Positions 8,171 through 49,440 of a stretch of 64,000 nucleotides of DNA are shown piece by piece. A program made the translations under genes and the position numbers. The DNA is from Squalus acanthias. Its lineage: Eukaryota. The notes below the pieces were generated by a model. That model was not told the origin of the DNA. It saw only the letters and a program-made list of their open reading frames with translations, and ran no database searches. The stretch spans positions 150,042,001-150,106,000 of the forward strand of contig CM059431.1 in NCBI GenBank assembly GCA_030390025.1. Direction: 5' to 3'. The stretch's first letter is position 1. The number at the start of each line of letters is the position of its first letter.

Positions 8171-8317
8171 AACCTCGAATTAATGTAAATAATTATGAAA
8201 GTCAGGGAACTGTCGTAAATTGATAAGCTTTCTGTGGGAGATGTTTATGTCATTGCCTATACTGAACAATAAGAAAATTTAATTTTATAGCCTGGCCCCT
8301 ACTCTAGATTTCGGAAC

Positions 8318-9510
8318 TGTAGACTTCGCAAAATCCCCCAGAAAGTCGAACAGATCCCTAAAGGGAGTGATTTCTGGACGTTTCATACAATCTTGGGATG
8401 ATGGGGCCTAAGTGAAGTGATTTGATGTAAAAACCGATAGATCAGGGAAGAAAAACCTGAGGAAAATGATTTTTTTTAAACCTTATTGTTGAGAGGGACA
8501 TTTTTTTCACGGACACAAGCTGCGAGGGGCCTGGCCGGTCAGTGAACAGATCAAGCTGCCTGGGAATTGTTTGAGACAAAGCAAAACTCACAAACACATT
8601 CAAATATGTATCTCCACGGGCAAACAAGATGCTGGAAATCTAAAAACGATTCAATGACAATATAACTTCGATCACACAGTTTCATAGCCATTATCCCATC
8701 AAAAAAAACATCAACCAGGTTTCCACAGAACAGATTTAAAAGCCCGCCAACAGAAGGACAATAGGGTGGAGATTTGGCGCGTAGGTAAGGCTGTGTTTAA
8801 ATCGGAAAACGATTAACACCATGCAAAAACCATCGGAACTGGCAAGACAGCCAAAAACTAGACAATTGCACTAAGCAAGCTTTATTTACAATCAAAAAGG
8901 AATTCGGTTTCGTAAGGGGTTTTTGGGCGCAAAAAAGAAACGGTATATCTTGAGATTCTCTGCCATAATTTCTCTCTTTTTCGGACTGACTGACGACGCG
9001 GACACAGCTCTCTCCCTGCTCCAGCAAAAATTAACACAAGCCACGAGGAAGAAGGCCAGAAGACAAGCACGCAAGAAGATACCAGAGCGACTGCCTCAGT
9101 GACCATCAGACACCTCGCAGCAACAAGGGCCTTACGGAGTCCTTTTAAAGAAAAGACTATAATATCCTGTCAATGAATCGTTGGTGAGCATTATCCCTGA
9201 TCTCCTGAAACCAAAAACCTAGCCAGATAGCGGGATCTTTTGGAGGGATAAGGTTTTGTTTGATATATTGTCATTTCCCTCGCTTGTACCGTGTGTTCCC
9301 CGAATCTGTGTTGAAGTAATAAGTGTGTTTCAAGTTTTTTACCTTTTTCCTTTAATAAAGTAAAATTCTTTCATCAGAACCTATTTACTGCAATTTTGTT
9401 CACAACCCCTAATTAAGCACAAAGTCTAGGTACCGGAGGGGTGTTGGAGCGATTCGAACCGCTCACTGTGTCATAAAGAGAAGGCTGAACCCATCAAGAT
9501 ACCCCTTACA
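8318..9510 (+). repeat. 5' LTR
   Basis: TGTAGACTTCGC...ACCCCTTACA. AATAAA at 9354-9359. Aligns end to end with 14960-16152. Confidence 0.95.
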
Positions 9511-9513
9511 TAA

Positions 9514-11202
9514 ATGGCGACCGTGGCAGGAGTTTGCCGAAAGTGTTGTGAAGCAGTAAATGCTGGTTTTGAGGAGAGAACAAAAATGGAAGAGAGGATG
9601 TCATCCTATGTATATAAAAAAGTAAATATCACCAAGAAATGGGTCCTCAGGCTGTTGCATGCTGGACGTCCTATGGACGCTGCAGCTGCATGGACTGAGA
9701 GCAAGGAATACAATAAGTCTGTGGAGAAAGCCATATGGTTGGTCTGCTCCCAGAAACAAATGCAGCTTATGGGGAAGCGCATTCAGGCTCTCACAGAAGA
9801 GCTAAAGGAAGAAAGCCAACTGTCCCGTGCCAGAGCTATAGCAGGGGATAGGTTGTTTGCAGATCTCGGCACAAAAGATCAGGAACAGTCACAGATGCTG
9901 GAGGAACACCGTGCCAGTAAGGGATACCTCCAGTGTCAGGCCACCGAGGCCAAAAGTAGTGGCATTGCGGGAGCAGAACACCCGCCTTGCCAAGCAATTA
10001 AGGGAACTCACAGAGAAGTTAAACGATGTTCAGGCAGCCTATAGAATAGCCAATAAAAGGGAGTTTGAGGTAGCGGACCACGGCCCCTGTCAGAAGCAGA
10101 TTGAGAGTCTGAACCTTGCTCTGTCCAAGGCAAAAGGCATGCTGTGCCTGATAAGCCAGGGTGCGGCCCAGGCAGACCTGGAAGAGCAGGGGGAGACTGT
10201 TCGACCACCACCTGTGGCGCCAAGGAGAAGCTTGGTTAGGCAGCAGGAGGTGCAGACAATCTGTGAGGCTGACGGGGAGTGCACACCAGCACCTGTGGCG
10301 CCGAGTTTTGACTCGGTCTGGCAGCAGGGAGAGGGGGGCTAACCGATGCAGGAGAAGTCGGAGCCAGGGCCAATGTGCCCAGCACGACAGCAAAAATTCG
10401 GCCCGCCCGCCGGTGGTGGAGGTCAGGGACCCCTTGAAAGTCAATTCTTGGCTCCCCACGGTACACAACAGCTTAGGGCTATGGTAAGCCACCTGAGTAA
10501 ACTTACCCAAAAGGAAGACCCCTCAGTCCACTTCATGGAGGTGGAGCAATCAGCAGCCATTAACGATTGTGACGATGCCGAAATGGCAAAAATTGCTCCT
10601 GTTCTCATTAGATGGCAAATTGTACCAGTCACTCTCTACTGAGAGCAAGAGAGGACAGAACGGGTATGCTGCCCTCAGGGAAAAAGTTTTAGAGGCCATG
10701 GGAATGAATGAGGGAAGTCCTTTCTCCCGGGTGGAGAAAAACAGTGCAACTCGCAGGGGAGACCCCACAGGCTTTCGCAGACAGGCTGTGGCCGGTGTGC
10801 ATGGGTGCTTGTAATGGGGCTCTCGACAGGGCTAACCGCAACAGGGACGAGCTGGCCCACTGGCTCCGTAGCCTAGTGGCAAACAGCTTGCCACGAGTCA
10901 AAGCCAAGGCTGAGCTTTGGTTTGACCCAAGAGATCCCCGGGTCACCGAGGAGGCAGTGGTCAGGCAACTGACCCTAGCCTACCGGAACGGTAGGGGAGC
11001 TGAAGAAACCCCAACGAAAGGGAAGGTGCATGAGATAAAGCCCAGTCAGGATAAGAAGGAGTGGCACCAGGAAGGTGGTAAACCTTCCGACATGAAGCAT
11101 AACTGCTTCGTGTGCGGGAAGAGGGGGCACTGGAGAAAGGACTGTAGAAATCCTGGAAGGATATGCTGTCAAAGAATTCCCCAGCTTTTGCCCCAAAAGT
11201 AG
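9514..11202 (+). pseudogene. gag: gag, frameshifted: N-terminal coiled coil, capsid-like region, CCHC zinc knuckle
   Basis: Chained ORFs 9514, 9857, 10346, 10569 and 10708. Heptads (LREQNTRLAKQLRELTEKLNDV) and CFVCGKRGHWRKDC at 11104-11145. Confidence 0.85.
9515..9531 (+). promoter_or_regulatory. Primer-binding site, probably tRNA-Arg
   Basis: TGGCGACCGTGGCAGGA, 4 nt after the LTR. One mismatch to the complement of a vertebrate tRNA-Arg(TCG) 3' end as I recall it (TGGCGACCGCGGCAGGA). Confidence 0.7.
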
Positions 11203-11369
11203 AGGCACCGACCTCTTCCCCCACAGTGGACACAATAGTAGCGGCCATCAGAGTCCTGTTTGTTGTCCCAGGGAATGTAGCTTCTGGTGCATTAATCCCA
11301 TCTGCACCCCGCTAACGCAGACCTATGACTGGAACCAGCGCAGCCTGTCTACCTGTGTTCCCCGGGATA

Positions 11370-11830
11370 CCATGTTAAGAAGGGGGTGGATAACGTGCAG
11401 GGGAGATTTTGGTGGACACCGGAGCTGCCAGCACTGTTGTCCATTCGGCAGACCTGACCAATTCACCCAAGTCTAGCGGGGTTCCTTACAGTTTAATTGG
11501 AATCACAGGGAACAAGCAGGTTGGGGCCATGTCCAAACAGTTGGACATAGATTAAGTATCCCTCCATACCACGTGGGAGGGTAACCAAAAGGCCGACAAG
11601 TTGGCCAAGCAGGGGGCCGGTGAAGGAGAGTTATGGGATCTGTATAAAGCAGGTCCGGTAGCTGCAATCCGGGATAAGATAGGTACACGAGGGGTAGCTT
11701 AGCCCCCGGACTTAAAGCAGGTCCAAGCCCAGCATCCCGTCTTTAAGGCCGGCCTCGTAGAGAGAGAGAGAGTGCGGAGTCTATCGGAGGTCCGTTCAGG
11801 GCAGAGGACGATATTTTTGAACAGAATCAC
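11370..11830 (+). pseudogene. pol: pro-pol remnant: aspartic protease joined by deletion to the RNase H C-terminus; RT and integrase core absent
   Basis: EILVDTGAASTVV at 11403-11441, LIGITG flap, EGNQKADKLAKQGA at 11577-11618, then DLKQVQAQHP linker. Confidence 0.8.
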
Positions 11831-12699
11831 TGGTAAGCAGCCAATAACCTGGGGAGCCAGCATCAGAAAGATGGGCTGCTGTTAGAACTGACCAGTGCAA
11901 ACTTTTTAATCCTAAAAGGGAACAGCCGGCCAAGTTAGAAATCCGCAGCAAGCCACAAATGTCGCAGACACACAAGCTGCAGCGCGTTGGACAGTGTGTT
12001 GTCTCACAGGAGAGTTCACTCCACCGATTATGTGGGGCTCAAGCACCCCCCCAGTGGCCAGAGCCCTAAGAAGGTCTCCCCGCACACAACATCAAAGGCT
12101 ACTTTGCCCACAGGTGTATCTGTTTAGAGGGTCCCACCCAAAGAGGGTTGCAACCCGAAGAAGAGCGCCCAAGAGCAGGGAGGTTCTAAAGTTGGGGATT
12201 CCCAGCCTACAGCCTCCAACAGTGAGGGTTTCACAGGAGAGGTAGTACTGGAAGAAGAGAGAGAGAAGGGTCCCCCGCCCGCAGCCTCAGGCTGGGAGGA
12301 GCACACAGATATTAACGAGGGCGCTGCAAACACACCAAAGGCGGTAGTGTGCTGCAGCACAGGACGCAGCTGGGATGTTAAGATACCCCCAGCGGTTTTG
12401 AGGAAGGCCTTCTGGGTCCGGCGGAACAGGCCGCACTACACCCAGGTGTACAAGCCATCCAGAGGCCACATAAGGAAGAGACTAAACAGGACTTTACCTG
12501 GCCGTCCGGAGACGGGGGGCAAATGTAAATAATTTTGGGTTTTTATGTAATTGCAGTTTTGGTGGTTGTGGGTTATCATTAGTTTAGTTGTTTGTAGAGT
12601 TTTTTTTAAGTTTAAGGGCTTGATTAATTATCCAGCCAGAGAAACTTTCTGGGACATGGATATATGTTTTGTGTGTGCCCCTACAGAAAGGACTTCGGG

Positions 12700-14676
12700 A
12701 TGACAAGGTTTCTGCTCCTGCTCGCCCTGGTAGGGGTGAGCATCGGCTACCGAGGTGACGTGGAGACTCCCACATCTATGGGTGCTCAGGAGTGAGAGCA
12801 CCAGTCGTCACCGCAGGGGGTGGCGAGCGGGGAGTGGAGGAGCTCGCCATCTACTTCCAGGAGGGAAGGTGGCCAGCGTGGCTGGGGTCCAACTCTGCTA
12901 AATACTCCAACCAGCCCGGGTTCACGTACGGGGAGGGCTCCCTCCCATGCCCCAGAATACAGGACATTGCCACAAGGGTCAGTGTCACCGAGGGGAAGCG
13001 TGTGTGCCTTACCTGAAAGCCCCTACCAACGACCCAATACCGAAAACCCTGGAAGAAAAGTGCCCTACCACCACCAAGGGACCAGGGAATGGGTTAGTCC
13101 TGGTACCAATCGAAAGAGTACTATACCAGGGGGTACACTATGAAGTAGCTTCAGTAATATTAAACCTTACCGAGGTATATTTACCTGAGTGGTGTCCTAA
13201 GGAAACGGAGCAGCTGTACCAGGCCCTGCTAAAGGAAATGTATAGGAAATTTTACGAATTTGATTTTGCCAATATAGACAAAGTAGAGCTGTACAGAATA
13301 CACCCTGAGAACCCTATGGGCACGGGTAGACAAAGAAGGGGAGCCTGAAATGATGTCTTCACTGCCTATAGTACAGAGTCCTCTGTAATAAATAGCCTGG
13401 ATGACATGGAATTACAGACACGGATAAATGGTTTAAAAACCCAGTTAAGAAAGATCCTGAAGAATGGGAACACAGTGGTAGGCTCAGAGCTACATGAGGA
13501 CCAAGCTATGACGGTTCATTTAAAGGAAATTATTGCAGAATTGGAAAGGCATGCCAAAACAGTAAATGCACTCATACGGGAGGATAGGAATGCATCGGAT
13601 CAGGCTGCACAGAATGAGGTGTGTGTGCTGTATGGGGCATGGTTGCTGGGCGAGGGCCGTAGCAACCTGGAGGATTTAAAGCAAGGTTTAGTCCCCTCCT
13701 GGATCAGCAACAAGCACCTAACAGACCTCCACGCGTTTAGTAATTCGCTGAGCCCATGCCAATTTCGTCTAGCCTCTGAAGCCTACCCTGTCCCAATAGA
13801 TTGTGGGGGTTCAAATCACACTATCATGGGGATAGTAGTGAGAATGCCGGTCATGAGTGGGACAGCCCGACCCGTACCGGTATACAGGGTGGAGAACATT
13901 GGAGTCATTCATGAGGGTGCACACATCAGTTTTACAGCGGTCCCACCTTATGTCATAAAGTGGGAGCACGCCATGACAGGTACTGACCTCTCCGGGTGCC
14001 GGAGCCGGGGTTCACACATAATACAGTGTCCCCAGCACTTGAACGCCTATTCCAAAAAACAGTGCGAGTTTAAAACTGCTGGCGCACGACCTATCAATAG
14101 TACCATGGAGGTGATGGCACACAGACATGTTTCGCCACAGGTAGCATATATAGGGGTGGGATATATTGTGTCACCACAGCTGCGTCCCACTAAGTGACAG
14201 CAGTTTCTGCTTTAAACCCGAGGCAGAAGTTCAAGTCGCCCAGGAACGGATTGTCCCCATTCCTTAACCCTCCACTGTTCACCTCACTGTAACAGAAAAC
14301 ATCACCTACCTGCAAAAGTATGTGACTTACTTTGGATGTAAAATTCCCCCTCTACCCGAACATCTTACCATCCTATTTAAAGCTGCAGGGATTTCACAAA
14401 AAACATTTCTACACCCTGGAACAGAAAACAGTTGAAATAGGGGCTGAGATTTTGGATATAGTAGTTCCACCCTGGTGGGATATTTTCGAGAATATAGAGG
14501 TGCCGTCCTGGATCAGGATGGCTTCCCATCTTTTGGTGGTCTGCCAGCTCGGGATAGTTCTCTACCTGCTGTGTACAAAGTGCAGGGGAAGGGACGGGGA
14601 GCTCCGCTACAGACAGGAAGGGACTTGGGAAGTGCATCAAAATAAAGGCTATTGCCAGGTTTGGAACGAACCTTGA
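12700..14676 (+). pseudogene. env: env, class I fusion glycoprotein of the F type (several stops and frameshifts)
   Basis: Acceptor ...gcccctacag at 12686; signal peptide MTRFLLLLALVGVSIG from ATG 12700; furin site RQRR at 13328-13339; heptad region; Cys-rich beta region; TM WIRMASHLLVVCQLGIVLYLLC. Confidence 0.85.
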
Positions 14677-14959
14677 ATTTTGTCTTTGAATAAAACAAAT
14701 TGTATGTGTGTTGTGTCATTTTTATGATGTGTATGATGTGTTTTTTCCAAGCTGTGCAGGTGTGTCGGACCCTCTCCGTGCTTGGATGTGAAATAAAGAT
14801 TGATTCTTACCTGTATGTAACTGAAACACAACTTTCAAAAGGGGAATGAATGTTTGGGTTTTTAGTTTAGGTAATATAGTCGAAGGTTGGTTTTCGGGGA
14901 TCAGAAATTTTGCTCACCTGTTAATGATACTAATTCAGTTTTATTATCAAACTGGAGGA

Positions 14960-16152
14960 TGTAGGCTTCGCAAAATCCCCCAGAACTCGAACAGAGCACT
15001 AAAGGGAGTGATTTTTGGACTTTTCATACAAACTTGGGATGATGGGCTCTCAGTGAAGTGATTTGATGTAAAAACCTATAGATCAGGGAAGAAAAACCTG
15101 AGGTAACTGATTTTTTTTTTATCTTATTGTTGGGAGAGACATTTTTTTCACAGGCACAAGCTGCGAGGGGCGTGGCAGGTCAGTGAACAGATCAAGCTGT
15201 CTGGGAATTGTTTCAGAAAAAGCAAAACTCAGAAACACATTCAAATATGGATCCCCGGTGCAAACAAAATGCTGGAAATCTAAGAACGATTCAATGACAA
15301 TATAACTTCTTTCACACAGTTTCATAGCCGTAATCCCATCAAAATAAACAATCAACCAGGTATCCACAGAACAGTTTTAAAAGCCCGCCAACAGAAGGAC
15401 AATAGGGTGGAGATTTGGTGCGTAGATAAGGCTGTGCTTAAATCGGAAATATATTAACTCTAAGCAAAAACCACCGGAACTGGCAAGCCCGCCAAAATCT
15501 AAACAATTGGACTAAGCAAGGTTCATTTACAATCAAAAAGGACTTCGTTTTCGTAAGTGGTTTTTTGGGAGCGAAAAAGAAACAGTATCATTTGAGAGCC
15601 TGTGCCATAATTTCTCTCTTTTTCGGACTGACTAACGACACGGACACTGCTCTCTCCCTGCTCCAGCAAAACTTACCACAAGCCACGAGGAAGAAGGCCA
15701 GAAAACCAGCACGCAAGAAGAAACCAGAGCGACTGCCTCAGTGACCATCAGACACCTCGCAGCAACATGGGGCTTACGGAGTCCTTTTAAACAAAAGACT
15801 CTAATATCCTGTCAAGGATTCGTTGGTGAGCATTATCCCTGATCTCCTGAAACCAAAACCCTAGCCAGATAGTGGGATCTTTGGGTGGGATAAGGTTTTG
15901 TTTATAATATTGTCATTTCCCTCGCTTGTACCGTGTGTTCCCCGTATCTGTGTTTAAATAATAAGTGTGTTTCAAGTTTGTTACCTTTTTCCTTCACTAA
16001 ATTAAGATTCTTTCATCAGAATCTGTTTACTGCAATTTTGTTCACAACCCCAAAATAAGCCCAAAGTCTAGGAACCGGAGGGGTTTTGGAGCGATTCGAA
16101 CCGCTCACTGTTTCAGAAAGCGAAGGCTGACACCATCAAGATACCCCTTACA
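14960..16152 (+). repeat. 3' LTR
   Basis: TGTAGGCTTCGC...ACCCCTTACA, preceded by a short purine-rich tract (aaactggagga) and followed by the GAAC TSD. Confidence 0.95.
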
Positions 16153-17899
16153 GAACCACGCAGAGAGAGATGAGCAAAGATCTCCAGACACCTCACGATC
16201 TTTTGATAAGATCACCTGAAAGCCCGAGAATGGCTTGGATCAGATGTCACGTGTGGCATGATATTGGGATACGGTTTTGTGCGTGAACGAACGAGTCTCA
16301 AACATGCTTCGTTATCGACAGCAGCACAACATGAAATGGCTAATGTGGCTCAGGAGAGTGAGACACTTCTTAAATCATAAAGGCCAGGACACATTCTCCA
16401 TAGAGAAACCGATTTTAAATATTCAGGATAGTGTTAAACATCCTGTCAGAGGCATTACAATTAAAAGTCAAGATAATGCTCATGAAATTAGGATTTCCTT
16501 TCCGCTAAATTTGTCGTCACCTTCAAGGCCTCTACTAAGTATTGAACAATGAAAGATTGTAGGGAGGCTAAAAACAACAGATATTAAGGGAGGCCGAGAC
16601 CTGTCTGTGTCTGGACCAGTTGGCCATGGTTGTATCCAAATCAGCGACAAGCTGAAGGTTTGAGACCAGGAGGCCATAACTTACAGGTTCCATAACAAAA
16701 CATGGATCCAAGTGAGAGGCAACCTCCAAGAGAAAGCAGAAGAAATCAAAAGGGTTTAATTTGTAATCAGTGATAAATAGAAGTGCAGCATCTCAATCGC
16801 ATAATTTCGGTGACAATAGAGAAAGAACCCTAAAGCAGGCTCCTTGGGATGATTGGGAGTCCCGTATGCAGGAGACCAGGAAGACCCCGCTGAACCAGGT
16901 GAGATGGGACACACCCTGACCCCAAACACTAAATTGGTCACTGAATTCATAGCGTTCAGTTAAAGACTTAATATCAGACTCGGACAAAAAGTAATTCGAG
17001 AACATTGTAAAATACTTCAATAACAACTTACAAGAAAACTTCAGCAAGTTATTTTAAAGTAACAAATGTCTTATGTTGATAAGTAATATTAACTATTGCT
17101 TTGCCAAGTACAAACGCTGATGGTGATCAACGTAACACTAAAACTTTTGTGAGACCAAAAGAAAGACATCCCACCTCACATACAGATCTCTACCTGTCCG
17201 ATCCAGCAAAATAACCCAAACGTTGATGGACTAGAAATAATTGAATCAGCAAATGTATTATATAATGATGTGTGTGTTGAAATTATACTGGTTGCGTTTA
17301 CGTTGATCTTGAATCTGTAAACCAGATTATGTGATGGGAGTTATTCACAATTAATAGGCAAAATGGAAGGAGAATTAGTAAATAATGTGCTAGTAAAGAA
17401 CAGAAAATAGGAACCAAGGGCTGAGGTAGACGAGGAGCAGAAGGAGAATCAGTTTAAAATCGAGAAGGATTGGCGATGAATAGGAGCCATGGCAAGGTTA
17501 GCGGGAGTTAGCAGAATACCTATAGAAAGTATGGAGGAACACGACGAGTTAATGAAGAGGCAATTGGAAAGATTGTTTGCAAACAATGAGGTTAACCAGA
17601 ATCAGGACCTTAATGGAGGAATCGTGTGTAGCCCCTATGTGACATTTGTGATGAATGTGGTACAGAATGGTCTTACTGCAATTATATAGGGCGCTGGGTG
17701 TGTCCCATTCCACCTGGTTCAGGGAGTCTTCCTGGTCTCCCGCATACGGGACTCACAGTATTCCCAAGGAACCGGCTTTAGGGATCTTTCTCTACTACCA
17801 CCGAAATAAAGCTTTTGAGAGGCCATACCTCGGTTTTTCACTGATTCCAAAACTAACCATTTTGAGGTCTTCTGCTTCATCATGGAGTTCACCATGGAT

Positions 17900-22268: not shown

Positions 22269-23170
22269 TTATCCTTTAATGAATGTTACAATCAGAGTAA
22301 AGGGATATTTTCCCATATTCTTCAACTGCTCTCTGAACTTAGTCTGGGTCACGGCATAAATCCCTGTGTTTGTGCAGCAACTCAGCATCTGCAGCATCAA
22401 TCCCAATTCCTGTAAATAAAGAGGAGCATTTACAGACACAGGACTGATAGACCCTATCCGGCTCCATATATAAATCACCATAAACACTGCCCATAACAGG
22501 ATGAAATTGCCCGAGATAACAAGCAGTAAAGTGATGGATTTCCTGCGGCTCTCCATCTCTGGGTCTCTCTGACTCTCCCCAATGCAGGGACCCCGGAGTC
22601 TCCTGCGGGCTTTGCTGGCCACTAAAATGTGTCTGACTGTGAGAGCATTGAACAGCAGAATCAGAACAAATGGGACCGCCGGGGTGAGACTATAATGAAG
22701 GAGCTCGATTGCTGCCCAGGCACGTGATTTCATAACGTCGATTGTTACCTCACAAAACCAGGGCATGTTCCAAAGCCCATACCAAGTTTCGAACATAAAA
22801 TACCAGGAAATGTTCTTTGAGCCGCTCAGCACAGTCACTGTTCCCAGAATCACAGCCGCCGTTTTCTCCGTGCAATATTTCGTTTTCAGCTTCTGGCGAC
22901 AAATGGCCACAAATCGATCGAAGGTGAAAGTGACGGTGAACCAGACAGAACAGTCTGTGGCTGCATAAAGCAGGACGGCATGGATATTACACACGGGGAT
23001 GGATCGCACGAACTGAAAATGTTCCAAATAAACAATCGGAATGTGCCTCAATATCAGGTCGAGGAAAACGACCAGTAGATCCGCCGCTGCCATGGCCAGC
23101 AGGTAGCGAGTGACACATTTGGAGAGACCGCACTTTCCCCGAGACAGGATCATAATCGTCACTAAGTTCA
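22269..23170 (-). CDS. GPR139/GPR142-like rhodopsin-family GPCR, main exon (second half of TM1 to TM7), intact
   Basis: Acceptor ttgctcacAG|TG at 23171/23170 (phase 1). Motifs VNLVTIMILSR, LLAMAAADLL, TFDRFVAIC, NTGIYAVTQTKFR. 300 codons without a stop. Confidence 0.9.
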
Positions 23171-23459
23171 CTGTGAGCAAGGGAAATAAACAGTGACATT
23201 ATACATCAGGCTGGGAGGGGAAATAAAGAGGGAAATTATACATCAGGCTGGGAGCAGGAGCAGCAGTTTGAAGGAATTCGGGGAGAAATCAGCAACTCAT
23301 TAGCGACATTCAATTATATAATCTCATTGGATTACCCGTGAAGCTGAATACAGGTTTATTTTAAGAATAATCGGAAATACATTGAAGAATCGATCAATGA
23401 ATCGGGGCTGAATACAACAGGAAAGTAACAGATGTTTGATCAATGAGAGATTAATTGCT

Positions 23460-36848: not shown

Positions 36849-37966
36849 TCGGAAGCCTCAAAGTTTTGAACACTTTTATTAAATCTCCCCCTAACCTTCT
36901 CTGTCCTAAAGCGAAGAATCCTTGATTCTCCAATCTCCCACATAATTGAAGGTCCTCACCCCTAGTGATATTATGGTAAATTGTCTCCACACAAGCAACA
37001 GGCGATGACCAGGAAGAGATATTTTTAATTGCTCCATTGGACATCAATTGCATTTCCATCACCGAATCCTCCATCATCAATATCCTAGGCGTCGCCATTA
37101 ATCAGAATATCAACTGGAAAAGCCACATAAATGACTATAACAGCAGGTCAGAGGCTGGGGATTCTGAGGTGTGTAACTCACCTCCTGACTCCCCAAAGCA
37201 TTTCCAAAACCTAAAATGCACACGTCAAGAGCATTATGGATTACTATCTGTAGACACCGAATACATTAGCATAGTGGTTATTTTACTGTACTTGTATTCC
37301 AGAGGCCTGGACTAATAATCCGTGAGACATGAGTTCAAATCCCACCACGGCTGTTGGGGAATTTAAATTCAGTTAAATAAATACATTTGGAATTAAAAAG
37401 CTGGTATCAGTAATGGAGACCGTGATACTACCGGATTGTTGTTAAAAAAAACAACTGGTTCAATGAGTAACTTTAAGGATGGAGATCTGCCATCCTTACC
37501 TGGGCTGCCCTTATATGGTTGACACTTAACTACCCTCTGAAATGTCCCAGAAAGCCTCACAGTTGCACAAAAGTCAGACACTTTGGGGGTATCTTAAACT
37601 CAAGGGGGTAGAAATTAGGTCGCGCCCCATTTGGGGCGCAAATATCGTCCGGACGCAAATATTAGCGCCTGGCGCTAATTATCGGCACTGACAGGAAACT
37701 TCACTTTTACCACCCCGGGAGGTGAGTGGAGCGCTAAATTAGGCGCTGCGCACCTGTCTCAAGGCGCAAAGGCCAAGGAGTGAGGCGCTAACTCAGCGCA
37801 CGAGCGCAGCACAGCTGCTGCCAGTTAGCGAGGGAACACAGACACAATGGCGCCGGACACTTCTTAAAGCGGGGGGGGGGGGGGCACTTGCTCCCCAGCC
37901 ACACCCTGCTCATTGCAGCCTTGAATCTCAGCCTGGAGAGACCTGTAATCCATTTTGCTGCCAAGC

Positions 37967-39957
37967 ATGGAGAGGGTGAGAGAACGCGCTCATCGCTTCA
38001 CCGAGCGGGCCTTGGATGCTCTGGTTGGCGCAGTGGAGCGCAGACGATGCATGCTGTTCCCGGAGAGTGGCAGGAGGCCTTTGCCACGCGAGTTCAGAAG
38101 ACTGTGGAGGGAGGTGGCTCAGAGCGTCTCCTCCAGGAGCATGGTGCCCAGGACCCATGTTCAATGCCGCAAAAAGTTCAACGACCTCACTCGGGTCGTC
38201 AGGGTGAGTGGCTTTTTCTCAATACCTCTCCATCCCTCCATCTCAACCTCACTCTATGGCCAGAGGGTCTTAAAACCCCAATGCACAACACTCATCCAAC
38301 ACCTATGGCCCTTTCATCAAACACACACACACATTCCACACTTTGCATACAGTAAGGGCTATTCACCTATGGGAGGCACATCAGGCAAGACCATGGCTGT
38401 ATATTGTAAGGGCTATTCACCTATGGGAGGCACATCAGGCAAGACCATGGCTGCATACAGTAAGGGCTATTCACCTATGGGAGGCACATCAGGCAAGACC
38501 ATGGCTGCATACAGTAAGGGCTATTCACCTATGGGAGGCACATCAGGCAAGACCATGGCTGTATATTGTAAGGGCTATTCACCTATGGGAGGCACATCAG
38601 GCAAGACCATGGCTGTATATTTACTCAGATGCTGTCCTTTTTCTTGCAGGCTAAGCTGGCTCATAATCGGAGACAGCAGCAACGGACGGGTGGAGGGCGG
38701 CTTCAGCTGCAACCCCTCAGCGATCTGGAGGAGCGCGTCCACAGGATTGTTGCAAGCCGGGTGATCGGTCCCGTCGCCACTGGAGACGCAGACCCCGTTG
38801 TGGACAGCAATGGTAAGGTCATCACCTTTTTGTCCTCTGTCCTTCCACTTGTCCCTCACAATACCAGCCTTTGACACTTTCAATCCAACTTGCTAACTCG
38901 CTGCACTTATTCCTCCCTTACTGCCACCCTGTCCTCACGCTAAAGCCACTCTTGTACCTCCCTGCTTTCAGATGGTGATTCACCAGCTGAGGAGACGGGC
39001 CCTGAAGCTGCCACTGGGAGTGATGCTGCAGCTGAGGAGGAAGAGGAAGCCGGAGCATCAGTGCCACCCTCTCCCGAGGAAGCCCATGCCCACACTGGGA
39101 ACACGCCTTCCCCGGAGGGGAGCAGGTGGGAAGAGGCTGATGATGGTGAAGCTCCAGGACCCAGCGGGCTGCAGCAACGCCATGGGGGGGGGGGGGGGTA
39201 GGGAAGAACGGGGGCCTTCTCCCCAGAGGGAGAGTATGCCAGACACTCCTACTGCAATGGACGCAGCGGAGGAGCGGCTGATTGCAGAAATGAACACCCA
39301 GGCGGTGGGCATGCACACTGAGCTCATGGGTGCAGTGGGAAGGGTGCCCGATGGCATTGAGTCACTGGCAAGGAGTGTGGAGCACTTCGCTGTAGCACAG
39401 GCGGATGCCACACTAATGCTTAGTGCTGCAATTCAGTCACTGGCTGCCGTGATCCCACCTCTGACTGCTCTCATACAGACTCAGATGGAGGCCACGCGAG
39501 CACTGACTGCTGCCATCCTCGATGGTTCGTGCACATGTCCCCGGGGCTGTCACCGCGCCGCAGCAGGCCAGCAATCTGTTCTCCGGCAAATTGCTCCGGA
39601 TGCTGTAGTGCTGCCCCGTGGGAGTGCCAGTGTGTCGGGCGAGCAGGGAGTTGCTGTCCTCTCTCACGATGACAGCATTCCTGCTGCCAACACTGTCACT
39701 TCTCCACTGCACTTGCCACCGCCTGTAGGACAGACTGCTGCCGCCATGCAGAGTTGGTGCAGTCTGCAGCCGGGCCCTCCAGGCCCAGAAGTGGTCGAGG
39801 CCGTCCTTCAGGGGCATCTGCAGTGTCAGGGTCTGACGAGCAGCAGCGTTCCACCAGCCTTGCTGCAGCCACTGAGGTCCCATTACGGAGGAGCAGTAGG
39901 GTTAGAAGGGGGGAAGTGCGCAAGGGAAGGAGATCACAATCGAAGGGCAAAAAGTAG
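37967..39957 (+). pseudogene. Harbinger Myb/SANT-like DNA-binding gene, 3 exons (37967-38203, 38650-38812, 38972-39957), frameshifted
   Basis: RFTERALDALV..WREVAQSV..RTHVQCRKKFNDL. Canonical GT-AG junctions. A G15 tract gives an in-frame TAG. Confidence 0.8.
38352..38621. repeat. 54-bp VNTR, 5 copies, in Myb intron 1
   Basis: gtaagggctattcacctatgggaggcacatcaggcaagaccatggctgtatatt; 3 copies in element 2 (46283-46444). Confidence 0.95.
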
Positions 39958-40251
39958 GAGGTGTGCCAAAATGCTGGTCATTTTTTTATTAAAGGCCGAG
40001 GTTCATGGTCCAACTTTTGTTTAGTGTTTTGGACATTATCTCCAGGTTGTGAGAACCAGTTATGTTATTGACTGTTTTTTTGTGTTTATTTCTATGAGTT
40101 TGTCATGAGGAATTGACACACACAGAGTTTGTAAAATAAATAAGTTTCTGTATTCAAAATATACATGGCTGGTGGTTGGAATTATTGGTGCCTTGGCCGG
40201 CTTAGGGGTTGCGTGCTGGGTTGATTAGTGTTTGTAGCAATGGCAGGGGCC

Positions 40252-41412
40252 CTAGAAGCGGCTTGCTATTAGTCGTTGACGGACGGCCCTTGCAGTTTGA
40301 CCATTGTGGGCCGCCCTCCTGCCTTGGTGCTGCTGATGATCATCGTCCTCGTCCTGTTCCTCTTCTTCCTCCTCCTCCTCTGGTGGTGCTACAAGGCCTG
40401 GTGGCATTGGCTGGGTCCTGAGGATTGCCATGTTGTGCAACATGCAGCACACGACTACGAAGTTCGGAACTTGTTCAGGCGAGTACTGCAGTGCTCCTCC
40501 GGAATGGTCCAGACAGCGGAACCGTTGTTTCAGCACGCCGATTGTGCGCTCAATAATGTTCCTGGTTGCTTGATGGCTTTCATTGTACCGCAGCTCAGCA
40601 GGGGTGTTTGGCGTACGGAGCGGTGTCATCAGCCAGGTGCTCAATGCGTTCCCCTTGTCCCCCAGAAGCCAACCAACTGGCTGATGCGGTGCCTCGAAAA
40701 CTTCTGCCACAGTAGTCTAGCGCAGGATGAAAGCATCGTGGCAGCTGCCCGGATAGTGGGCATTGACAGCGAGTATCACCTGTCTGTGGTCACAGACCAA
40801 CTGCACATTCAAGGAATGGAGCCCCTTTCTGTTCCTGAATTCCTCTGCATTCTCTCGCAGAGCACGCAAAGCCACATGTGTGCAGTCAATGGCGCCCTGC
40901 ACCATGGGGAAGCCCGCTACCCTCGCAAAGCCCAGAGAACGGTCACGCTGCTTGTCTGGGGTCATAGGGAAAGAGATGAAGTCTCGTCTCCTTCTGAAGA
41001 GGGCATTGGTGACCTGCCGGATGCAGCGATGCACCGCAAACTGGGAGATATTGCCGAGGTCCCCAACAGCAGCTTGGAATGAGCCAGTGGCATAGAAGTT
41101 CAAAGCCACTGTGACCTTCACTGCCACCGACAGAGACGTCCTGTACCTCAGCTGAGGCTGCAGATCTGGCTGCAGCAGGTGGCAGAGTTCAGTGACCACC
41201 TACTTGCTGAATCGCAGCCTTCGCAAACACAGCTCCTCGGACATATGGATGTAGGAGAGCTGTTCACGATATACCCTTGGAGGGTAAGCTCTCCTGTACA
41301 TGCGCCTGATGGCCCTCCTCCGTCTGGCCATCATTGCCACTCTCTGTCTGCGTCTCACTATCCTCCGATTCAGCTGGAGCAGGACGACGCCCCCAATCAT
41401 TGCAGCCCCCAT
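40252..41412 (-). pseudogene. Harbinger transposase, copy 1, with premature stops
   Basis: Nearly identical to 43487-44647 but split into ORFs 41200-41412, 40717-41199 and 40252-40710 by TAG codons. Confidence 0.92.
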
Positions 41413-42082
41413 ATTCTCTTTGCCAGAAAAGTAATGAGGTACAGCAACTAAAGTAGCAACAAAGTTAGGATGAACTAGGCCAAACTACCTCATAAAGCGT
41501 TGAGTCAATGTAGAAGTCTCTCTCTCTCTCTCTCCGAATCTCTCTCTCTCTCTCAGAACGAGTGGTGCATAAATGTCGACCACAGAAAAAGACAGGAAGA
41601 GGCCCCCTTTAAATAGCGCCCCCCCCCCCAGCCCCACACCAATTGATAACGTTCCAGTCTTCAGGTCGTTGGAAGCGCCAGGCGGTAAGGCAGGGGGCGC
41701 CACTCAATTTCCGCTCTGGGGCGCCCCAAGGGCGTTGCACCATGGAATGACGTCACAATCTGCGCGCGCAGGTGGTCGCAGCGGTAAGTTTTAGCGCCGC
41801 CGCACAATCTCAAGTTAAGTTCTCGAGCGGCGCAAACAGCGCTGCGCCCGGGCGTTAGCGGCTTAACTCCCCATTAGCGCCCTCTTAAGGCGCTAACGGG
41901 GGGCGCAACCAAGTGAATTTTTCCCCCCAGGACTGCAGCGGTTCAATAAGGCGGCTCACCACCACATTCTGACGGACAATTAGGAAGTGGCTTGCCTTGC
42001 CAGCGATGCCCACATTCCGTGAATGAATGAATAAATAAAATACACCGAACCTTTCTCAAAATTAAGCATAATGAAACATATT

Positions 42083-42961
42083 GGGGTAGAAATTAGGTCG
42101 CGCCCCATTTGGGGCGCAAATATCGTCCGGACGCAAATCTTAGCGCCTGGCGCTAATTATCGGCACTGACAGGAAACTTCACTTTTACCGCCCCGGGAGG
42201 TGAGTGGAGCGCTAAATTAGGCGCTGCACACCTCTCTTAAGGCGCAAAGTCCGAGCAGTGAGGCGCTAACTCGGAGCGCTGGCGAAGCTCATGTAATGTC
42301 AGTCAGCAATGGAACACACACACAATGGCACGGGCCAGTTCTTAAAGGGGATGGTTAATCTTGCTTTCCATCCACATCCTGTTCATTGCTGCCTTGAATC
42401 TCGGCCTGGAGAGACTCGCACATCAAATGTGCTGGAAAGAACAATGGAGAGCACCAGGCAAAGAGCTCAGAGTGCAGATCCCACGGTCTCTGCTAAATCG
42501 ATACAAGGAATGGCAAATCAAAATGAACCTGCAAAGTGCTGCTCAGTACCCAAAACTCCTTCACACAACGTTGAATCTCTCCAGAAGTCTCTCCCTCTCT
42601 CTCTCAGAATGCGTAGTTCAAAAATGCCACCAACAATAAAAGACAGGAAGAGGCCCCCTTTAAATAGCGCCCCCCCCCAGCCCCACAGCGATTGATAGCG
42701 TTCCAGTCTTCTGGTCGTTGGAAGCGCCAGGCGGTAAGGCAGGGGGCGCCACTCAATTTCCGCTACGGGGCGCCCCAAAGGCGTTGCACCATGGAATGAC
42801 GTCACAATCTGCGCGCGCAGGTGTTCGCAGCGGTAAGTTTTAGCGCCGCCGCACAATCTCAAGTTAAGTTCTCGAGCGGCGCAAACATCGCTGCGCCCGG
42901 GCGTTAGCGGCTTTGCGACCCATTAGCGCCCTCTTAAGGCGCTAACGGGTGGCGCAACCAA
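42083..42961 (+). mobile_element. Non-autonomous Harbinger derivative with truncated right TIR
   Basis: Both ends match the autonomous element; nearly identical to 57113-58004; lacks the last ~15 bp. Confidence 0.9.
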
Positions 42962-43139
42962 CCATTAAAACTGAGGGGTAAAAATTCACTTGGTTGCGCC
43001 TCCCGTTAGCGCCTTAAGAGGGCGCTAATGGGGCGTTAAGCCGCTAACGTCCGGGCGCAGCGCTGTTTGCGCCGATCGAGAACTTAACTTGAGATTGTGC
43101 GGCGGCGCTAAAAGTTAACGCTGCGACCACCTGCGCGCG

Positions 43140-43295
43140 CAGATTGTGACGTCATTCCATGGTGCAACGCCCTTGGGGCGCCCGGGAGCGGAAATTGAGT
43201 GGCGCCCCCTGCCTTACCGCCTGGCGCTTCCAACGACCAGAAGACTGGAACGTTATCAATCGGTGTGGGGCTGGGGGGGGCGCTATTTAAAGGGG
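43140..43295 (+). promoter_or_regulatory. Putative transposase promoter
   Basis: CRE palindrome TGACGTCA ~43147 and TATA-like TATTTAAA ~43284, ~200 bp upstream of ATG 43487. Kept in all four family members. Confidence 0.45.
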
Positions 43296-43486
43296 GCCTC
43301 TTCCTGTCTTTTTCTGTGGTCGACATTTATGCACCACTCGTTCTGAGAGAGAGAGAGAGATTCGGAGAGAGAGAGAGAGAGACTTCTACATTGACTCAAC
43401 GCTTTGTGAGGTAGTTTTGCCTAGTTCATCCTAACTTTGTTGCTACTTTAGTTGCTGTACCTCATTACTTTTCTGGCAAAGAGAAT

Positions 43487-44647
43487 ATGGGGGCTGCAAT
43501 GATTGGGGGCGTCGTCCTGCTCCAGCTGAATCGGAGGATACTGAGACGCAGACAGAGAGTGGCAATGATGGCCAGACGGAGGAGGGCCATCAGGCGCATG
43601 TACAGGAGAGCTTACCCTCCCAGAGTATATTGTGAACAGCACTCCTACATCCATATGTCCGAGGAGCTGTGTTTGCGAAGGCTGCGATTCAGCAAGGAGG
43701 TGGTCACTGAGCTCTGCCACCTGCTGCAGCCAGATCTGCAGCCTCAGCTGAGGTCCAGGACGTCTCTGTCGGTGGCAGTGAAGGTCACAGTGGCTTTGAA
43801 CTTCTACGCCACTGGCTCATTCCAAGCTGCTGTTGGGGACCTCGCCAATATCTCCCAGTTTGCGGTGCATCGCTGCATCCGGCAGGTCACCAATGCCCTC
43901 TTCAGAAGGAGACGAGACTTCATCTCTTTCCCTATGACCCCAGACAAGCAGCGTGACCGTGCTCTGGGCTTTGCGAGGGTAGCGGGCTTCCCCATGGTGC
44001 AGGGCGCCATTGACTGCACGCATGTGGCTTTGCGTGCTCCGCGAGAGAATGCAGAGGAATTCAGGAACAGAAAGGGGTTCCATTCCTTGAATGTGCAGTT
44101 GGTCTGTGACCACAGACAGGTGATACTCGCTGTCAATGCCCACTATCCGGGCAGCTGCCACGATGCTTTCATCCTGCGCCAGACTACTGTGGCAGAAGTT
44201 TTCGAGGCACCGCATCAGCCAGTTGGTTGGCTTCTGGGGGACAAGGGGTACGCATTGAGCACCTGGCTGATGACACCGCTCCGTACGCCAAACACCCCTG
44301 CTGAGCTGCGGTACAATGAAAGCCATCAAGCAACCAGGAACATTATTGAGCGCACAATCGGCGTGCTGAAACAACGGTTCCGCTGTCTGGACCATTCCGG
44401 AGGAGCCCTGCAGTACTCGCCTGAGCAAGTTTCGAACTTCGTAGTCGTGTGCTGCATGTTGCACAACATGGCAATCCTCAGGACCCAGCCAATGCCACCA
44501 GGCCTTGTAGCACCACCAGAGGAGGAGGAGGAAGAGGAGGAACAGGACGAGGACGATGATCATCAGCAGCACCAAGGCAGGAGGGCGGCCCACAATGGTC
44601 AAACTGCAAGGGCCGTCCGTCAACGACTAATAGCAAGCCGCTTCTAG
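43487..44647 (+). CDS. Intact PIF/Harbinger DDE transposase (HARBI1-like), 386 aa
   Basis: GAIDCTHV, PGSCHDA, LLGDKGY, IERTIGVLKQRFRCL, CCMLHN; uninterrupted ORF. Confidence 0.95.
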   Translation: MGAAMIGGVVLLQLNRRILRRRQRVAMMARRRRAIRRMYRRAYPPRVYCEQHSYIHMSEELCLRRLRFSKEVVTELCHLLQPDLQPQLRSRTSLSVAVKVTVALNFYATGSFQAAVGDLANISQFAVHRCIRQVTNALFRRRRDFISFPMTPDKQRDRALGFARVAGFPMVQGAIDCTHVALRAPRENAEEFRNRKGFHSLNVQLVCDHRQVILAVNAHYPGSCHDAFILRQTTVAEVFEAPHQPVGWLLGDKGYALSTWLMTPLRTPNTPAELRYNESHQATRNIIERTIGVLKQRFRCLDHSGGALQYSPEQVSNFVVVCCMLHNMAILRTQPMPPGLVAPPEEEEEEEEQDEDDDHQQHQGRRAAHNGQTARAVRQRLIASRF

Positions 44648-44941
44648 GGCCCCTGCCATTGCTACAAACACTAATCAACCCAGCACGCAACCCCTAAGCC
44701 GGCCAAGGCACCAATAATTCCAACCACCAGCCATGTATATTTTGAATACAGAAACTTATTTATTTTACAAACTCTGTGTGTGTCAATTCCTCATGACAAA
44801 CTCATAGAAATAAACACAAAAAAACAGTCAATAACATAACTGGTTCTCACAACCTGGAGATAATGTCCAAAACACTAAACAAAAGTTGGACCATGAACCT
44901 CGGCCTTTAATAAAAAAATGACCAGCATTTTGGCACACCTC

Positions 44942-46831
44942 CTACTTTTTGCCCTTCGAGGGTGATCTCCTTCCCTTGCGCACTTCCCCCCTTCTAACCC
45001 TACTGCTCCTCCGTAATGGGACCTCAGTGGCTGCAGCAAGGCTGGTGGAAGGCTGCTGCTCGTCAGACCCTGACACTGCAGATGCCCCTGAAGGACGGCC
45101 TCGACCACTTCTAGGCCTGGAGGGCCCGGCTGCAGAATGCACCAACTCTGCATGGGCGGCAGCAGTCTGTCCTACAGGCGGTGGCAAGTGCAGTGGAGAA
45201 GTGACAGTGTTGGCAGCAGGAATGCTGTCATCGTGAGAGAGGCCAGCAACTCCCTGCTCGCCCGACACACTGGCACTCCCATGGGGCAGCACTTCAGCAT
45301 CCGGAGCAATTTGCCGGAGAACAGATTGCTGGCCTGCTGCGGCGCGGTGACAGCCCCGGGGACATGTGCACGAACCATCGAGGTTGGCAGCAGTCTGTGA
45401 TCGCGTGGCCTCCATCTGAGTCTGTATGAGAGCAGTCAGAGGTGGGATCACGGCAGCCAGTGACTGAATTGCAGCACTAAGCGTTAGTGTGGCATCCGCC
45501 TGTGCTACAGCGAAGTGCTCCACACTCCTTGCCAGTGACTCAATGCAATCGGGCACCCTTCCCACTGCACCCATGAGCTCAGTGTGCATGCCCACCGCCT
45601 GGGTGTTCATTTCTGCAATCAGCCGCTCCTCCTCTGCGTCCATTGCAGTAGGAGTGTCTGGCATACTTTCCCTCTGGGGAGAAGGCCCCCGTTCTTCCCT
45701 ACCCCCCCCCCCCCCCCCCCATGGCGTTGCTGCAGCCCGCTGGGTCCTGGAGCTTCACCATCATCAGCCCCTTCCCACCTGCTCCCCTCCGGGGAAGGCG
45801 TGTTCCCAGTGTGGGCATGGGCTTCCTCGGGAGAGGGTGGCACTGATCCTCCGGCTTCCTCTTCCTCCTCAGCTGCAGCATCACTCCCAGTGGCAGCTTC
45901 AGGGCCCGTCTCCTCAGCTGGTGAATCACCATCTGAAAGCAGGGAGGTACAAGAGTGGCTTTAGCGTGAGGACAGGGTTGCAGTAAGGGAGGAATAAGTG
46001 CAGCGTGTTAGCAAGTTGGATTGAAAGTGTCAAAGGCTGGTATTGTGAGGGACAAGTGGAAGGACAGAGGACAAAAAGGTGATGACCTTACCATTGCTGT
46101 CCACAACGGGGTCGGCGTCTCCAGTGGCGACGGGACCGATCACCCGGCTTGCCACAATCCTGTGGACGCGCTCCTCCAGATCGCTGAGGGGTTGCAGCTG
46201 AAGCCGCCCTCCACCCGTCCGTTGCTGCTGTCTCCGATTATGAGCCAGCTTAGCCTGCAAGAAAAAGGACAGCATCTGAGTAAATATACAGCCATGGTCT
46301 TGCCTGATGTGCCTCCCATAGGTGAATAGCCCTTACAATATACAGCCATGGTCTTGCCTGATGTGCCTCCCATAGGTGAATAGCCCTTACAATATACAGC
46401 CATGGTCTTGCCTGATGTGCCTCCCATAGGTGAATAGCCCTTACTGTATGCAAAGTGTGGAATGTGTGTGTGTGTGTTTGATGAAAGGGCCATAGGTGTT
46501 GGATGAGTGTTGTGCATTGGGGTTTTAAGACCCTCTGGCCATTGAGTGAGGTTGAGATGGAGGGATGGAGAGGTATTGAGAAAAAGCCACTCACCCTGAC
46601 GACCCGAGTGAGGTCGTTGAACTTTTTGCGGCATTGAACATGGGTCCTGGGCACCATGCTCCTGGAGGAGACGCTCTGAGCCACCTCCCTCCACAGTCTT
46701 CTGAACTCGCGTGGCAAAGGCCTCCTGCCACTCTCCGGGAACAGCATGCATCGTCTGCGCTCCACTGCTTCAACCAGAGCATCCAAGGCCCGCTCGGTGA
46801 AGCGATGAGCGCGTTCTCTCACCCTCTCCAT
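44942..46831 (-). CDS. Harbinger Myb/SANT-like gene copy 2 (exons 46831-46595, 46254-46092, 45932-44942); frame break only at a G19 tract
   Basis: Same exon structure as copy 1. C-terminal ORF 44942-45664 is open and ends in a basic NLS-like tail. Confidence 0.7.
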
Positions 46832-47379: not shown

Positions 47380-49440
47380 CTCCTTAAAACGCCTGTGTGA
47401 CTGGGTCGTCTCTTAAAAAATCTGTGTGTCTGGTCCTGTTTCTTGAAAAAGCTTTTCTCAGTGTTTCTGATTCATTAAACAGCCATTGTGACTGGTCGTG
47501 TCTCTTTAAAAAGCTTGTATGACTGATCATAAGAACATAAGAACATAGGAAATAGGAGCAGGAGTGGGCCAATCGGCCCCTCGAGCCTGCTCCGCCATTC
47601 AATAAGATCATGGCTGATCTGATCCTAACCGCCAATCTACTATCTATCACAGAACCATCTCCTGCATCTAACAGAATTGCACACACGAAATAGGAGCAGA
47701 ATCAGGCTACACAGTCCCTGGGCCCGCTCCACTACCCACAGGGCCATGACCGATCCGAACCTAGACTCATGTCCAAATTCCTGCCCGCTCCCCGTAACCC
47801 TTAATGCCCTTTACTTCTAGGAAACTGTCTATTTCTGTTTTAAATTTAATTAATGTTGTAGCTTCTACAGCTTTTTGTGGCAGCATATTCCATGGACCTA
47901 CCACCCTCTGAGTGAAGTAGTTCCTCCTCATCTCAGTTTTGAAAGAGCAGCCCCTTATTCTAAGACTATGTCCCCTAGTTCTCGTCTCACCCGTCATCGG
48001 GAACATCCTCCCCGCATCCACCCGATCCAACCCCTTCACAATCTTATATGTTTCAATAAGATCGCCTCTCATTCTTCTGAACTCCAATGAGTAGAGTCCC
48101 AATCTACCCAACCTCTCCTCATATGACCACCCCCTCATCCCCGGGATTAACCGAGTGAACCTTTTTTGCACTGCCTCGAGAGCAAGGATGTCTTTCCTTA
48201 AGTAAGGACACCAAAACTGTATGCAGTATTCCAGGTGCGGTCTCACCAATACCTTGTACAACTGAAGCAATACCTCCCTATTTTTATATTCTATCCCCCT
48301 AGCAATGAAAGCCAACATTCCATTGGCCTTCTTAATCACTTGCTGCACCTGCATACTAACCTTTTGAGTTTCGTGCACCAGGACCCCCAGATCCCTTTGC
48401 ACTTCAGTACTCTCCAGTTTCTTGCCATTAAGATAATAAATTGCTCTAGGATTTTTCCTGCCAAAGTGCATCACCTCACACTTTCCAGTGTTGTATTCCA
48501 TCTGCCAAATCTCTGCCCACTTACTTAGCCTGTCTATGTCCCCTTGCAGGTTTTTTATGTCCTCCTCACTCACTACTTTCCCTCCCATCTTTGTATCATC
48601 TGCAAATTTTGATATGTTACACTTGGTCCCTTCCTCCAAATCGTTAATATAGATTGTGAAGAGTTGGGGACCCAGCACTGACCCCTGTGGAACACCACTA
48701 GTTACTGATTGCCAGTCTGAGAATGAACCATTTATCCCAACTCTTTGCTTTCTGTTAGATAGCCAATCCTCTATCCATGCCAGAATATTACCCCCAATCC
48801 CGTGATTTTTTACCTTAAGCAATAATCTTTTGTGTGGCACCTTGTCAAATGCCTTTTGGAAGTCCAAATACACTACGTCCACTGGTTCCCATTTATCCAC
48901 TCTATATGTTACTTCCTCAAAGATCCTGTCTGTTTAAAAATTCCTCCTTGTCTGGTGCTGGCTCTTTAAAAAGCCTTTGTGTCTGGTCCTGTCTCTTTAA
49001 AATGTCTGTATGACAGGTACTGTCTCTTTATAAAACCTGTGTGACTGGACTTGTCTCTTTATAAAGCCTTTGTGAACAGTCCTGTATATGTAAAATGCAT
49101 GTGAGACAAGTCCTGTCTCTTTAAAAAATCCTACGTGAATTTTCCTGTCTCCTTAAAATGCTGGTGTGACTCGTTCAGTCTCATTAAATAGCCTATGTGA
49201 TGTTCCTGCTTCTTTATAAAGGCTCTGCGACTGGTCCTGTCTCTTTAAAAGGATTGTGTGACTGGTCTGTCTCTTTAAAAAGGAGTGTGTTTTGTCCTGT
49301 CTCTTAAAGAAGTCTGTGCGACTGATACTGTCTCTTTAATAAACATTGTGACTGAATCTTGCTGTTTAAAAAGTCTGTGTGACTGGTCCTGTCTGTTAAA
49401 GAAGCCTGTGTGACTGCTGTGTCTTTAACTGGTGTGACAG
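47380..49440. repeat. ~31-bp minisatellite (gtgtgactggtcctgtctctttaaaaagcct) interrupted by a CR1
   Basis: Units at 47380-47525 and 48922-49440. Confidence 0.85.
47529..48921 (-). mobile_element. Young 5'-truncated CR1 with an uninterrupted 377-aa RT/C-terminal ORF
   Basis: ORF 47767-48900 has no stops; tail (cataagaa)n; apparent TSD GATC at 47525-47528 and 48922-48925. Confidence 0.92.

Follow-up and report, generated by a model that had tools for sequence, protein, structure and literature searches.

Which retroviral lineage gave rise to the provirus at positions 8318-16152 of a 64,000-nucleotide stretch of the genome of the shark Squalus acanthias (hereafter the window; contig CM059431.1)? 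The original prediction took it for a lokiretrovirus with an envelope (Env) of the paramyxovirus fusion (F) protein type or, as a fallback, for a lineage carrying env and placed close to the retroviral root. The element turned out to be a dead copy with a pol deletion, from an endogenous retrovirus (ERV) family of high copy number. On balance, this family is probably an early-branching lineage of canonical retroviruses, of the class III/snakehead retrovirus (SnRV) grade and shared with frogs and coelacanth, and not a lokiretrovirus. A union with lokiretroviruses was rejected by an approximately unbiased (AU) test on reverse transcriptase (RT) plus the tether domain (p=0.002), and the family carries the canonical LPQGF type of RT motif, whereas lokiretroviruses carry NRCPFGY.

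An inactive provirus and its family

The provirus is bounded on both sides by GAAC target site duplications (TSDs), and its paired TG..CA long terminal repeats (LTRs) are as originally described. Its features, all on the + strand, are as follows.

8314-8317, +: left TSD, GAAC
8318-9510, +: 5' LTR, 1,193 bp, TG..CA
9515-9532, +: primer binding site (PBS), 16/18 bases complementary to the host tRNA-Arg(TCG), one more position being a possible G.U pair
9514-11325, +: gag, with frameshifts and one stop; CCHC knuckle at ~11104-11148
11326-11328, +: in-frame TGA at the gag/pol boundary, a likely readthrough junction
11329-11576, +: protease stub with DTGA, ended by the pol deletion
11577-11756, +: C-terminal tail of RNase H, in frame with the protease stub; RT and tether are missing, as is most of RNase H
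11810-12066, +: remnant of the integrase C-terminus, without catalytic core
12700-14676, +: env, broken; signal peptide, predicted F-type fusion module, RQRR cleavage site (13329-13340), transmembrane segment
14950-14959, +: short purine-rich tract 5' of the 3' LTR, a weak polypurine tract
14960-16152, +: 3' LTR, 1,193 bp, TG..CA
16153-16156, +: right TSD, GAAC

The two LTRs are 91.5% identical, with a Kimura two-parameter distance of 0.089. This gives only a loose insertion age, ~20 My at a rate of 2.2e-9 (PMC7947760) or ~200 My at 2.2e-10 (PMC4422223). The LTR pair (8318-9510 against 14960-16152) differs by 70 transversions and 31 transitions, against 32 to 34 in two other copies.

The PBS that had been noted was confirmed, starting after a 4-nt spacer from the 5' LTR, and in three other family copies 17/18 bases matched the same tRNA. 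The tRNA-Arg(TCG) belongs to this same genome, where it was located by pattern and called by ARAGORN. tRNA-Arg priming is known from SnRV, and reverse transcription in the present family would be primed by tRNA-Arg. The tRNA-Arg(TCG) pattern had 428 matches across the genome, and tRNA-Arg(TCG)/tRNA-Ser genes are tandemly arrayed with a period of 1,623 bp at ~39.0-42.2 Mb of G000:C26.

Concerning gag, the proposed CCHC knuckle exceeded the Pfam cut-off (zf-CCHC, E 7e-5), while the proposed coiled coil drew weak matches only. The DTGA motif (11415-11426) and the RNase H tail motif EGNQKADKLAKQGA (11577-11618) were both where they had been reported. The pol deletion begins at about protease residue 66 and runs up to the RNase H tail, and integrase is mostly lost too. 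In env, ~340 bp are missing at 13011-13019, a deletion that takes out most of a likely immunoglobulin (Ig)-like N-terminal module, and stops and frameshifts are present in addition. The window copy is inactive.

The rest of the genome was searched with env and RT queries, which gave 138 scored matches for env (86-100% identity, of 7,843 candidates) and 150 for RT (90-100% identity, of 16,269 candidates, other elements among them). An env query had been proposed as a route to copies bearing RT and integrase, and it did lead to them: RT was present in 3/12 stretches fetched near high-scoring env matches. Another 3/12 held the window-type protease/RNase H junction, 4/12 had a different frame separating gag from env, and 2/12 were more heavily deleted. 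Pfam domains for RT, tether, RNase H and integrase were all present in the RT-bearing relatives, and their LTR-PBS-gag-pol-env-LTR layout and protease-RT-tether-RNase H-integrase order are those of canonical Retroviridae.

The pol deletion is shared by many copies. Its junction was bridged at 40/40 scored places (the best 40 of 630 candidates), a recurrence which argues that the pol-less form multiplied in trans. Protein identity to the RT-bearing copies was 54-66% for the pol remnant and ~92-97% for env, which marks out the pol-less form as an established lineage. In env, dN/dS was <=0.35 in 19/21 pairs among seven other copies, the window copy giving 0.59-0.85; these values come from the 8/12 loci that aligned without gaps and are biased low, as these were top-scoring matches. 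The deletion junction is present in three of the seven. For a set chosen by score, this pattern fits selection on env while the family was spreading and neutral decay after insertion. The conservation of env in pol-less copies suggests that they spread by reinfection.

Other rearranged copies were also seen. In a second pol-less form (L013, L014, L019, L024), a frame of 250-300 codons after the gag TGA replaces pol and partly resembles the gag coiled-coil region (41-44%). In L020:7059-9941, a deletion joins integrase in frame with env, giving a 960-codon frame.

At the gag-pol boundary, TGA is followed by CTG or CTA in 11/11 family copies examined. UGA followed by CUA or CUG is a leaky stop context. 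Full-length members would likely make pol by UGA readthrough. Pol-less members, for their part, would likely provide gag, env and cis signals, their RNA being packaged, and would depend on full-length relatives for protease, RT and integrase by trans-complementation.

A predicted paramyxovirus-F-type envelope

In relatives of the window copy, env is a 788-residue frame with a signal peptide, an RQRR site, heptads and a transmembrane segment. As had been observed, there is no CX6CC motif, the family env having no CC pair. The F-type assignment that had been proposed was borne out by several approaches. Atlas grouped the env core with baculovirus and paramyxovirus F proteins (0.91). The env model matched paramyxovirus and pneumovirus F proteins in Foldseek (E 2e-10) and gave Z-scores of 9.2-11.5 against F of parainfluenza virus 5, Newcastle disease virus, measles virus and respiratory syncytial virus, and of 7.9 against foamy Env. 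Envelope identities were 8-15%, and the mean predicted local distance difference test (pLDDT) score of the model was 60, much of the core being confident. PF00523 was not matched by the family env in the Pfam search, and a search of the PDB with a single env sequence gave no match; profiles and folds were needed. Taken together, the family env is predicted to have the paramyxovirus F fold.

Among the references tested, the env profile was closest to lokiretroviral Env (57 bits), with 7-23 bits for foamy viruses, 7 for SnRV and <=3.7 for gamma- and deltaretroviruses; the maximum over 60 shuffles was 1.9 bits. HHalign gave 97.6% for the lokiretroviral Env and 84.5% for that of SnRV. The solved foamy Env was matched by the env profile at the sequence level (E 2e-4), and ranks 2 and 18 among the matches to the env model were taken by predicted Envs of walleye epidermal hyperplasia and dermal sarcoma viruses. 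Because matches extend to the envelopes of foamy viruses, SnRV and walleye viruses, the F-type fold is not a lokiretroviral marker. The protein would act in membrane fusion, as a class Ib (paramyxovirus-F-type) fusogen cleaved by furin.

As for the N-terminal module missing from the window copy, the listed Foldseek matches were mostly antibody and other Ig-domain chains (E ~0.01). The module is probably Ig-like, a lead rather than proof, and such a head would serve in attachment.

Env homologues were found in sharks, a skate and frogs (21-79% identity), the nearest named relatives being Heptranchias, Pristiophorus and Rhinoraja, which, with a genome of 3.7 Gb, point to a cartilaginous fish as host. 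These env relatives are annotated only as uncharacterised. The frog Mantella aurantiaca has a large set of almost identical, full-length env-like proteins (P0161 cluster, 16 members), which suggests a young related family in frogs. Pieces of env also lie inside shark host gene models (P0122, P0123, P0127, P0156; Niban, cadherin-related, zinc finger, fbxo15), by mis-annotation or exonisation.

Placement among retroviruses

RT slices were reduced from 163 to a 66-row quick tree and then to a 38-row careful tree, with near-duplicates and long rows removed. The SnRV reference (L031; 10,688 nt) had its RT matched by eye to the SnRV row of the alignment in PMC7947760. The lokiretroviral references L032 and L033 carry the lokiretroviral RT motif, and a search with L033 added pols from lamprey, Xenopus, coelacanth, gar, bowfin and teleosts. 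Scans of viral contigs with a single RT and with the lokiretroviral motif gave no match. References L034-L079 were classed as foamy, gamma, delta, beta or lenti by motifs and tree position, not by names.

Among these sampled references, lokiretroviruses were sister in the RT tree to a canonical clade (95/91) comprising foamy viruses, SnRV, a shark/frog/coelacanth group containing the present family (94/94) and orthoretroviruses. With five diverse lokiretroviruses included, the RT+tether tree (30 rows) again placed lokiretroviruses (97/95) as sister to the canonical clade (99/95), with the shark/frog/coelacanth group (87/92) inside the latter. In both trees the family lay outside the foamy clade and outside Metaviridae. 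The latter result, together with dual RNase H (tether plus cellular-type), agrees with the earlier view that the element is retroviral and not Ty3/Gypsy. Trees of RT, RNase H and integrase had been suggested as a check; as to RT, the exclusion from Ty3/Gypsy stood and the position in the canonical clade ran counter to lokiretroviral membership.

The group fell between lokiretroviruses and SnRV plus the rest both in the tether tree (36 rows) and in that of RNase H (29 rows). In the RNase H tree it was outside a lokiretrovirus+foamy clade (97/93), yet on that clade's side of the tree. The integrase tree (35 of 40 rows, no CGIN1 row among them) set the group with lokiretroviruses and gypsy, apart from all other retroviruses (97/95), and outside lokiretroviruses (99/97). 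Lokiretroviruses were monophyletic to the exclusion of the family in all four of the RT, RT+tether, RNase H and integrase trees (96-100 bootstrap).

A divergent lokiretrovirus, or a sister of lokiretroviruses, in cartilaginous fish would account for an F-type Env with signal peptide, RxxR site, coiled coil and transmembrane segment, as described for lokiretroviruses (PMC7947760, PMC9040795), and closest to theirs in profile score. It would equally account for tether and integrase scores that favour lokiretroviruses (38% tether identity vs 26% for SnRV; integrase, 221 vs 136 bits), a similar RNase H tail and a TGA-CTR junction as in L033, where SnRV has TAG-GGC. The dual RNase H, also lokiretroviral, is common to all retroviruses. 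Against this explanation stand the RT+tether result and the RT motif given above, the canonical-side RT (45% identity to SnRV, 34% to lokiretroviruses), the failure of any domain to nest in lokiretroviruses, and a gag CCHC knuckle as in SnRV where Pfam found none in the gag of L033; the family Env also has its extra N-terminal module. An exact pattern scan of the genome found no lokiretroviral RT motif, and no chondrichthyan name was among the 120 matches listed for a lokiretroviral pol. We therefore consider this explanation very improbable.

The original prediction held that no lokiretrovirus had been reported from Chondrichthyes, and this agrees with PMC7947760, in which three were screened and none was positive. 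A member in this shark, it had been suggested, could fill that gap. Since the family's RT does not group with lokiretroviruses, the gap in Chondrichthyes stays unfilled. The fallback survives in a weaker form, as an env-bearing lineage that probably branched early on the canonical side.

SnRV is the best RT match among described viruses. The family shares with it canonical RT motifs, a gag with coiled coil (weakly matched here) and CCHC, an in-frame gag-pol stop, dual RNase H and detectable env similarity; gag comparisons with SnRV and lokiretroviruses gave the zinc knuckle only, or nothing. Unlike in SnRV, the tether is much less degraded, and env is ~790 codons vs 1,134. The family might thus be a plain member of the SnRV clade with no special position, an F-type Env being common in basal retroviruses and the lokiretrovirus-like scores reflecting slow evolution. 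SnRV-like lineages are described from elephant shark (PMC4422223) and are the main ERV type in coelacanth (PMC4977317), and the SnRV Env aligns to the env profile. However, no best tree united the shark group with SnRV, no supported clade was found, and integrase rejected the union (p=0.008; a single SnRV row on a long branch), so that we judge this, too, to be most unlikely.

A mosaic origin deserves more weight, although we still regard it as unlikely. Here an ERV of the SnRV clade (clade Huo) by RT would have gained integrase, env and perhaps tether by recombination with a lokiretrovirus-type virus. RT+tether rejects lokiretroviruses while integrase rejects SnRV, the env score is far higher for lokiretroviruses than for SnRV, and repeated swaps of RNase H and integrase are described in retroviruses (Wang and Han, PMC7947760). 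On the other hand, domains of the shark group never nest in lokiretroviruses nor pair with them with support in any tree, frog and coelacanth relatives display the same pattern, and one ladder suits all domains: lokiretroviruses, then the group, then SnRV and the rest. Under an early canonical branch, the lokiretrovirus-like tether, integrase, env and UGA junction would most simply be ancestral traits of a slowly evolving lineage.

Several points weigh against that placement. The AU test on RT alone did not reject union with lokiretroviruses (p=0.064, with two close lokiretroviral rows only), nor did that on integrase (p=0.295), and RT+tether allowed a clade with SnRV (p=0.12) and gave no resolved order for foamy viruses, the shark group and SnRV+orthoretroviruses. 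AU values are somewhat generous, as group membership was set from first trees. No rows in the trees came from Odin, ERV-L/HERV-S, fish foamy-like ERVs, walleye viruses or elephant-shark lineage I. Rates affect similarity scores, and SnRV and foamy viruses are on long branches. Frog env and frog pol relatives were matched separately, and may not belong to the same element. In the env comparisons, template modelling scores were <0.5, and the Ig-like head rests on a model of pLDDT 46, the Foldseek matches at E ~0.01 and sub-threshold Pfam matches. The low bias of the dN/dS values belongs here as well.

With respect to other systems, the family resembles foamy viruses in its class Ib env fold (PMC11468914) and in the side of the RNase H tree on which it lies, and differs from them in its CCHC gag, gag and pol in one frame, and distinct RT and integrase clades. 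Odin retrotransposons have dual RNase H and an RT sister to that of lokiretroviruses and lack env, which the family has. The nearest pol relatives are 'NYNRIN-like' proteins of frogs and coelacanth (42-45%), annotated so or as uncharacterised. The SnRV clade, or clade Huo, is treated in PMC6001957, PMC12193657 and PMC4977317, and this pol lineage probably lies already within the published clade Huo trees. The elephant-shark CmiERV lineage I is SnRV-like (PMC4422223).

Neighbouring features and the origin of the retroviral envelope

Elsewhere in the window, a Harbinger/PIF-like DNA transposon region (37949-46769) contains a Myb/SANT frame (37949-38761) and a DDE_Tnp_4 transposase frame (43415-44644), and part of the transposase recurs as an inverted copy at ~40273-41079. 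A single-exon rhodopsin-family G-protein-coupled receptor frame of 309 residues is present at 22272-23198 (- strand). Fragments of long interspersed elements (1153-2019, 47770-48933, 51039-53756) encode an esterase-type ORF1, endonuclease and RT.

Cartilaginous fish are already known to carry SnRV-like ERVs (PMC4422223), and a divergent, possibly ancestral branch containing SnRV has been suggested (PMC4977317). In the literature outside subscription papers, bioRxiv supplements and Dfam/Repbase, we found no F-type Env described in SnRV-like ERVs and no chondrichthyan lokiretrovirus. In PMC9040795, lokiretroviral and canonical Envs are without detectable similarity and separate gains of env are preferred on that ground; in PMC11468914, foamy Env has the F fold and orthoretroviral Env is treated as a different subclass. 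We tentatively raise the possibility that the shark/frog/coelacanth group is the earliest, or among the earliest, of the canonical branches with an Env homologous to that of lokiretroviruses, that, given the fold common to foamy, SnRV and walleye virus envelopes, the ancestor which lokiretroviruses share with retroviruses already had an F-type Env, and that the gamma/beta-type Env was a later replacement. If true, this would contradict the independent-origins scenario of PMC9040795. As a canonical-side Env here aligns with lokiretroviral Env in sequence, the idea of a single origin becomes testable by an env tree.

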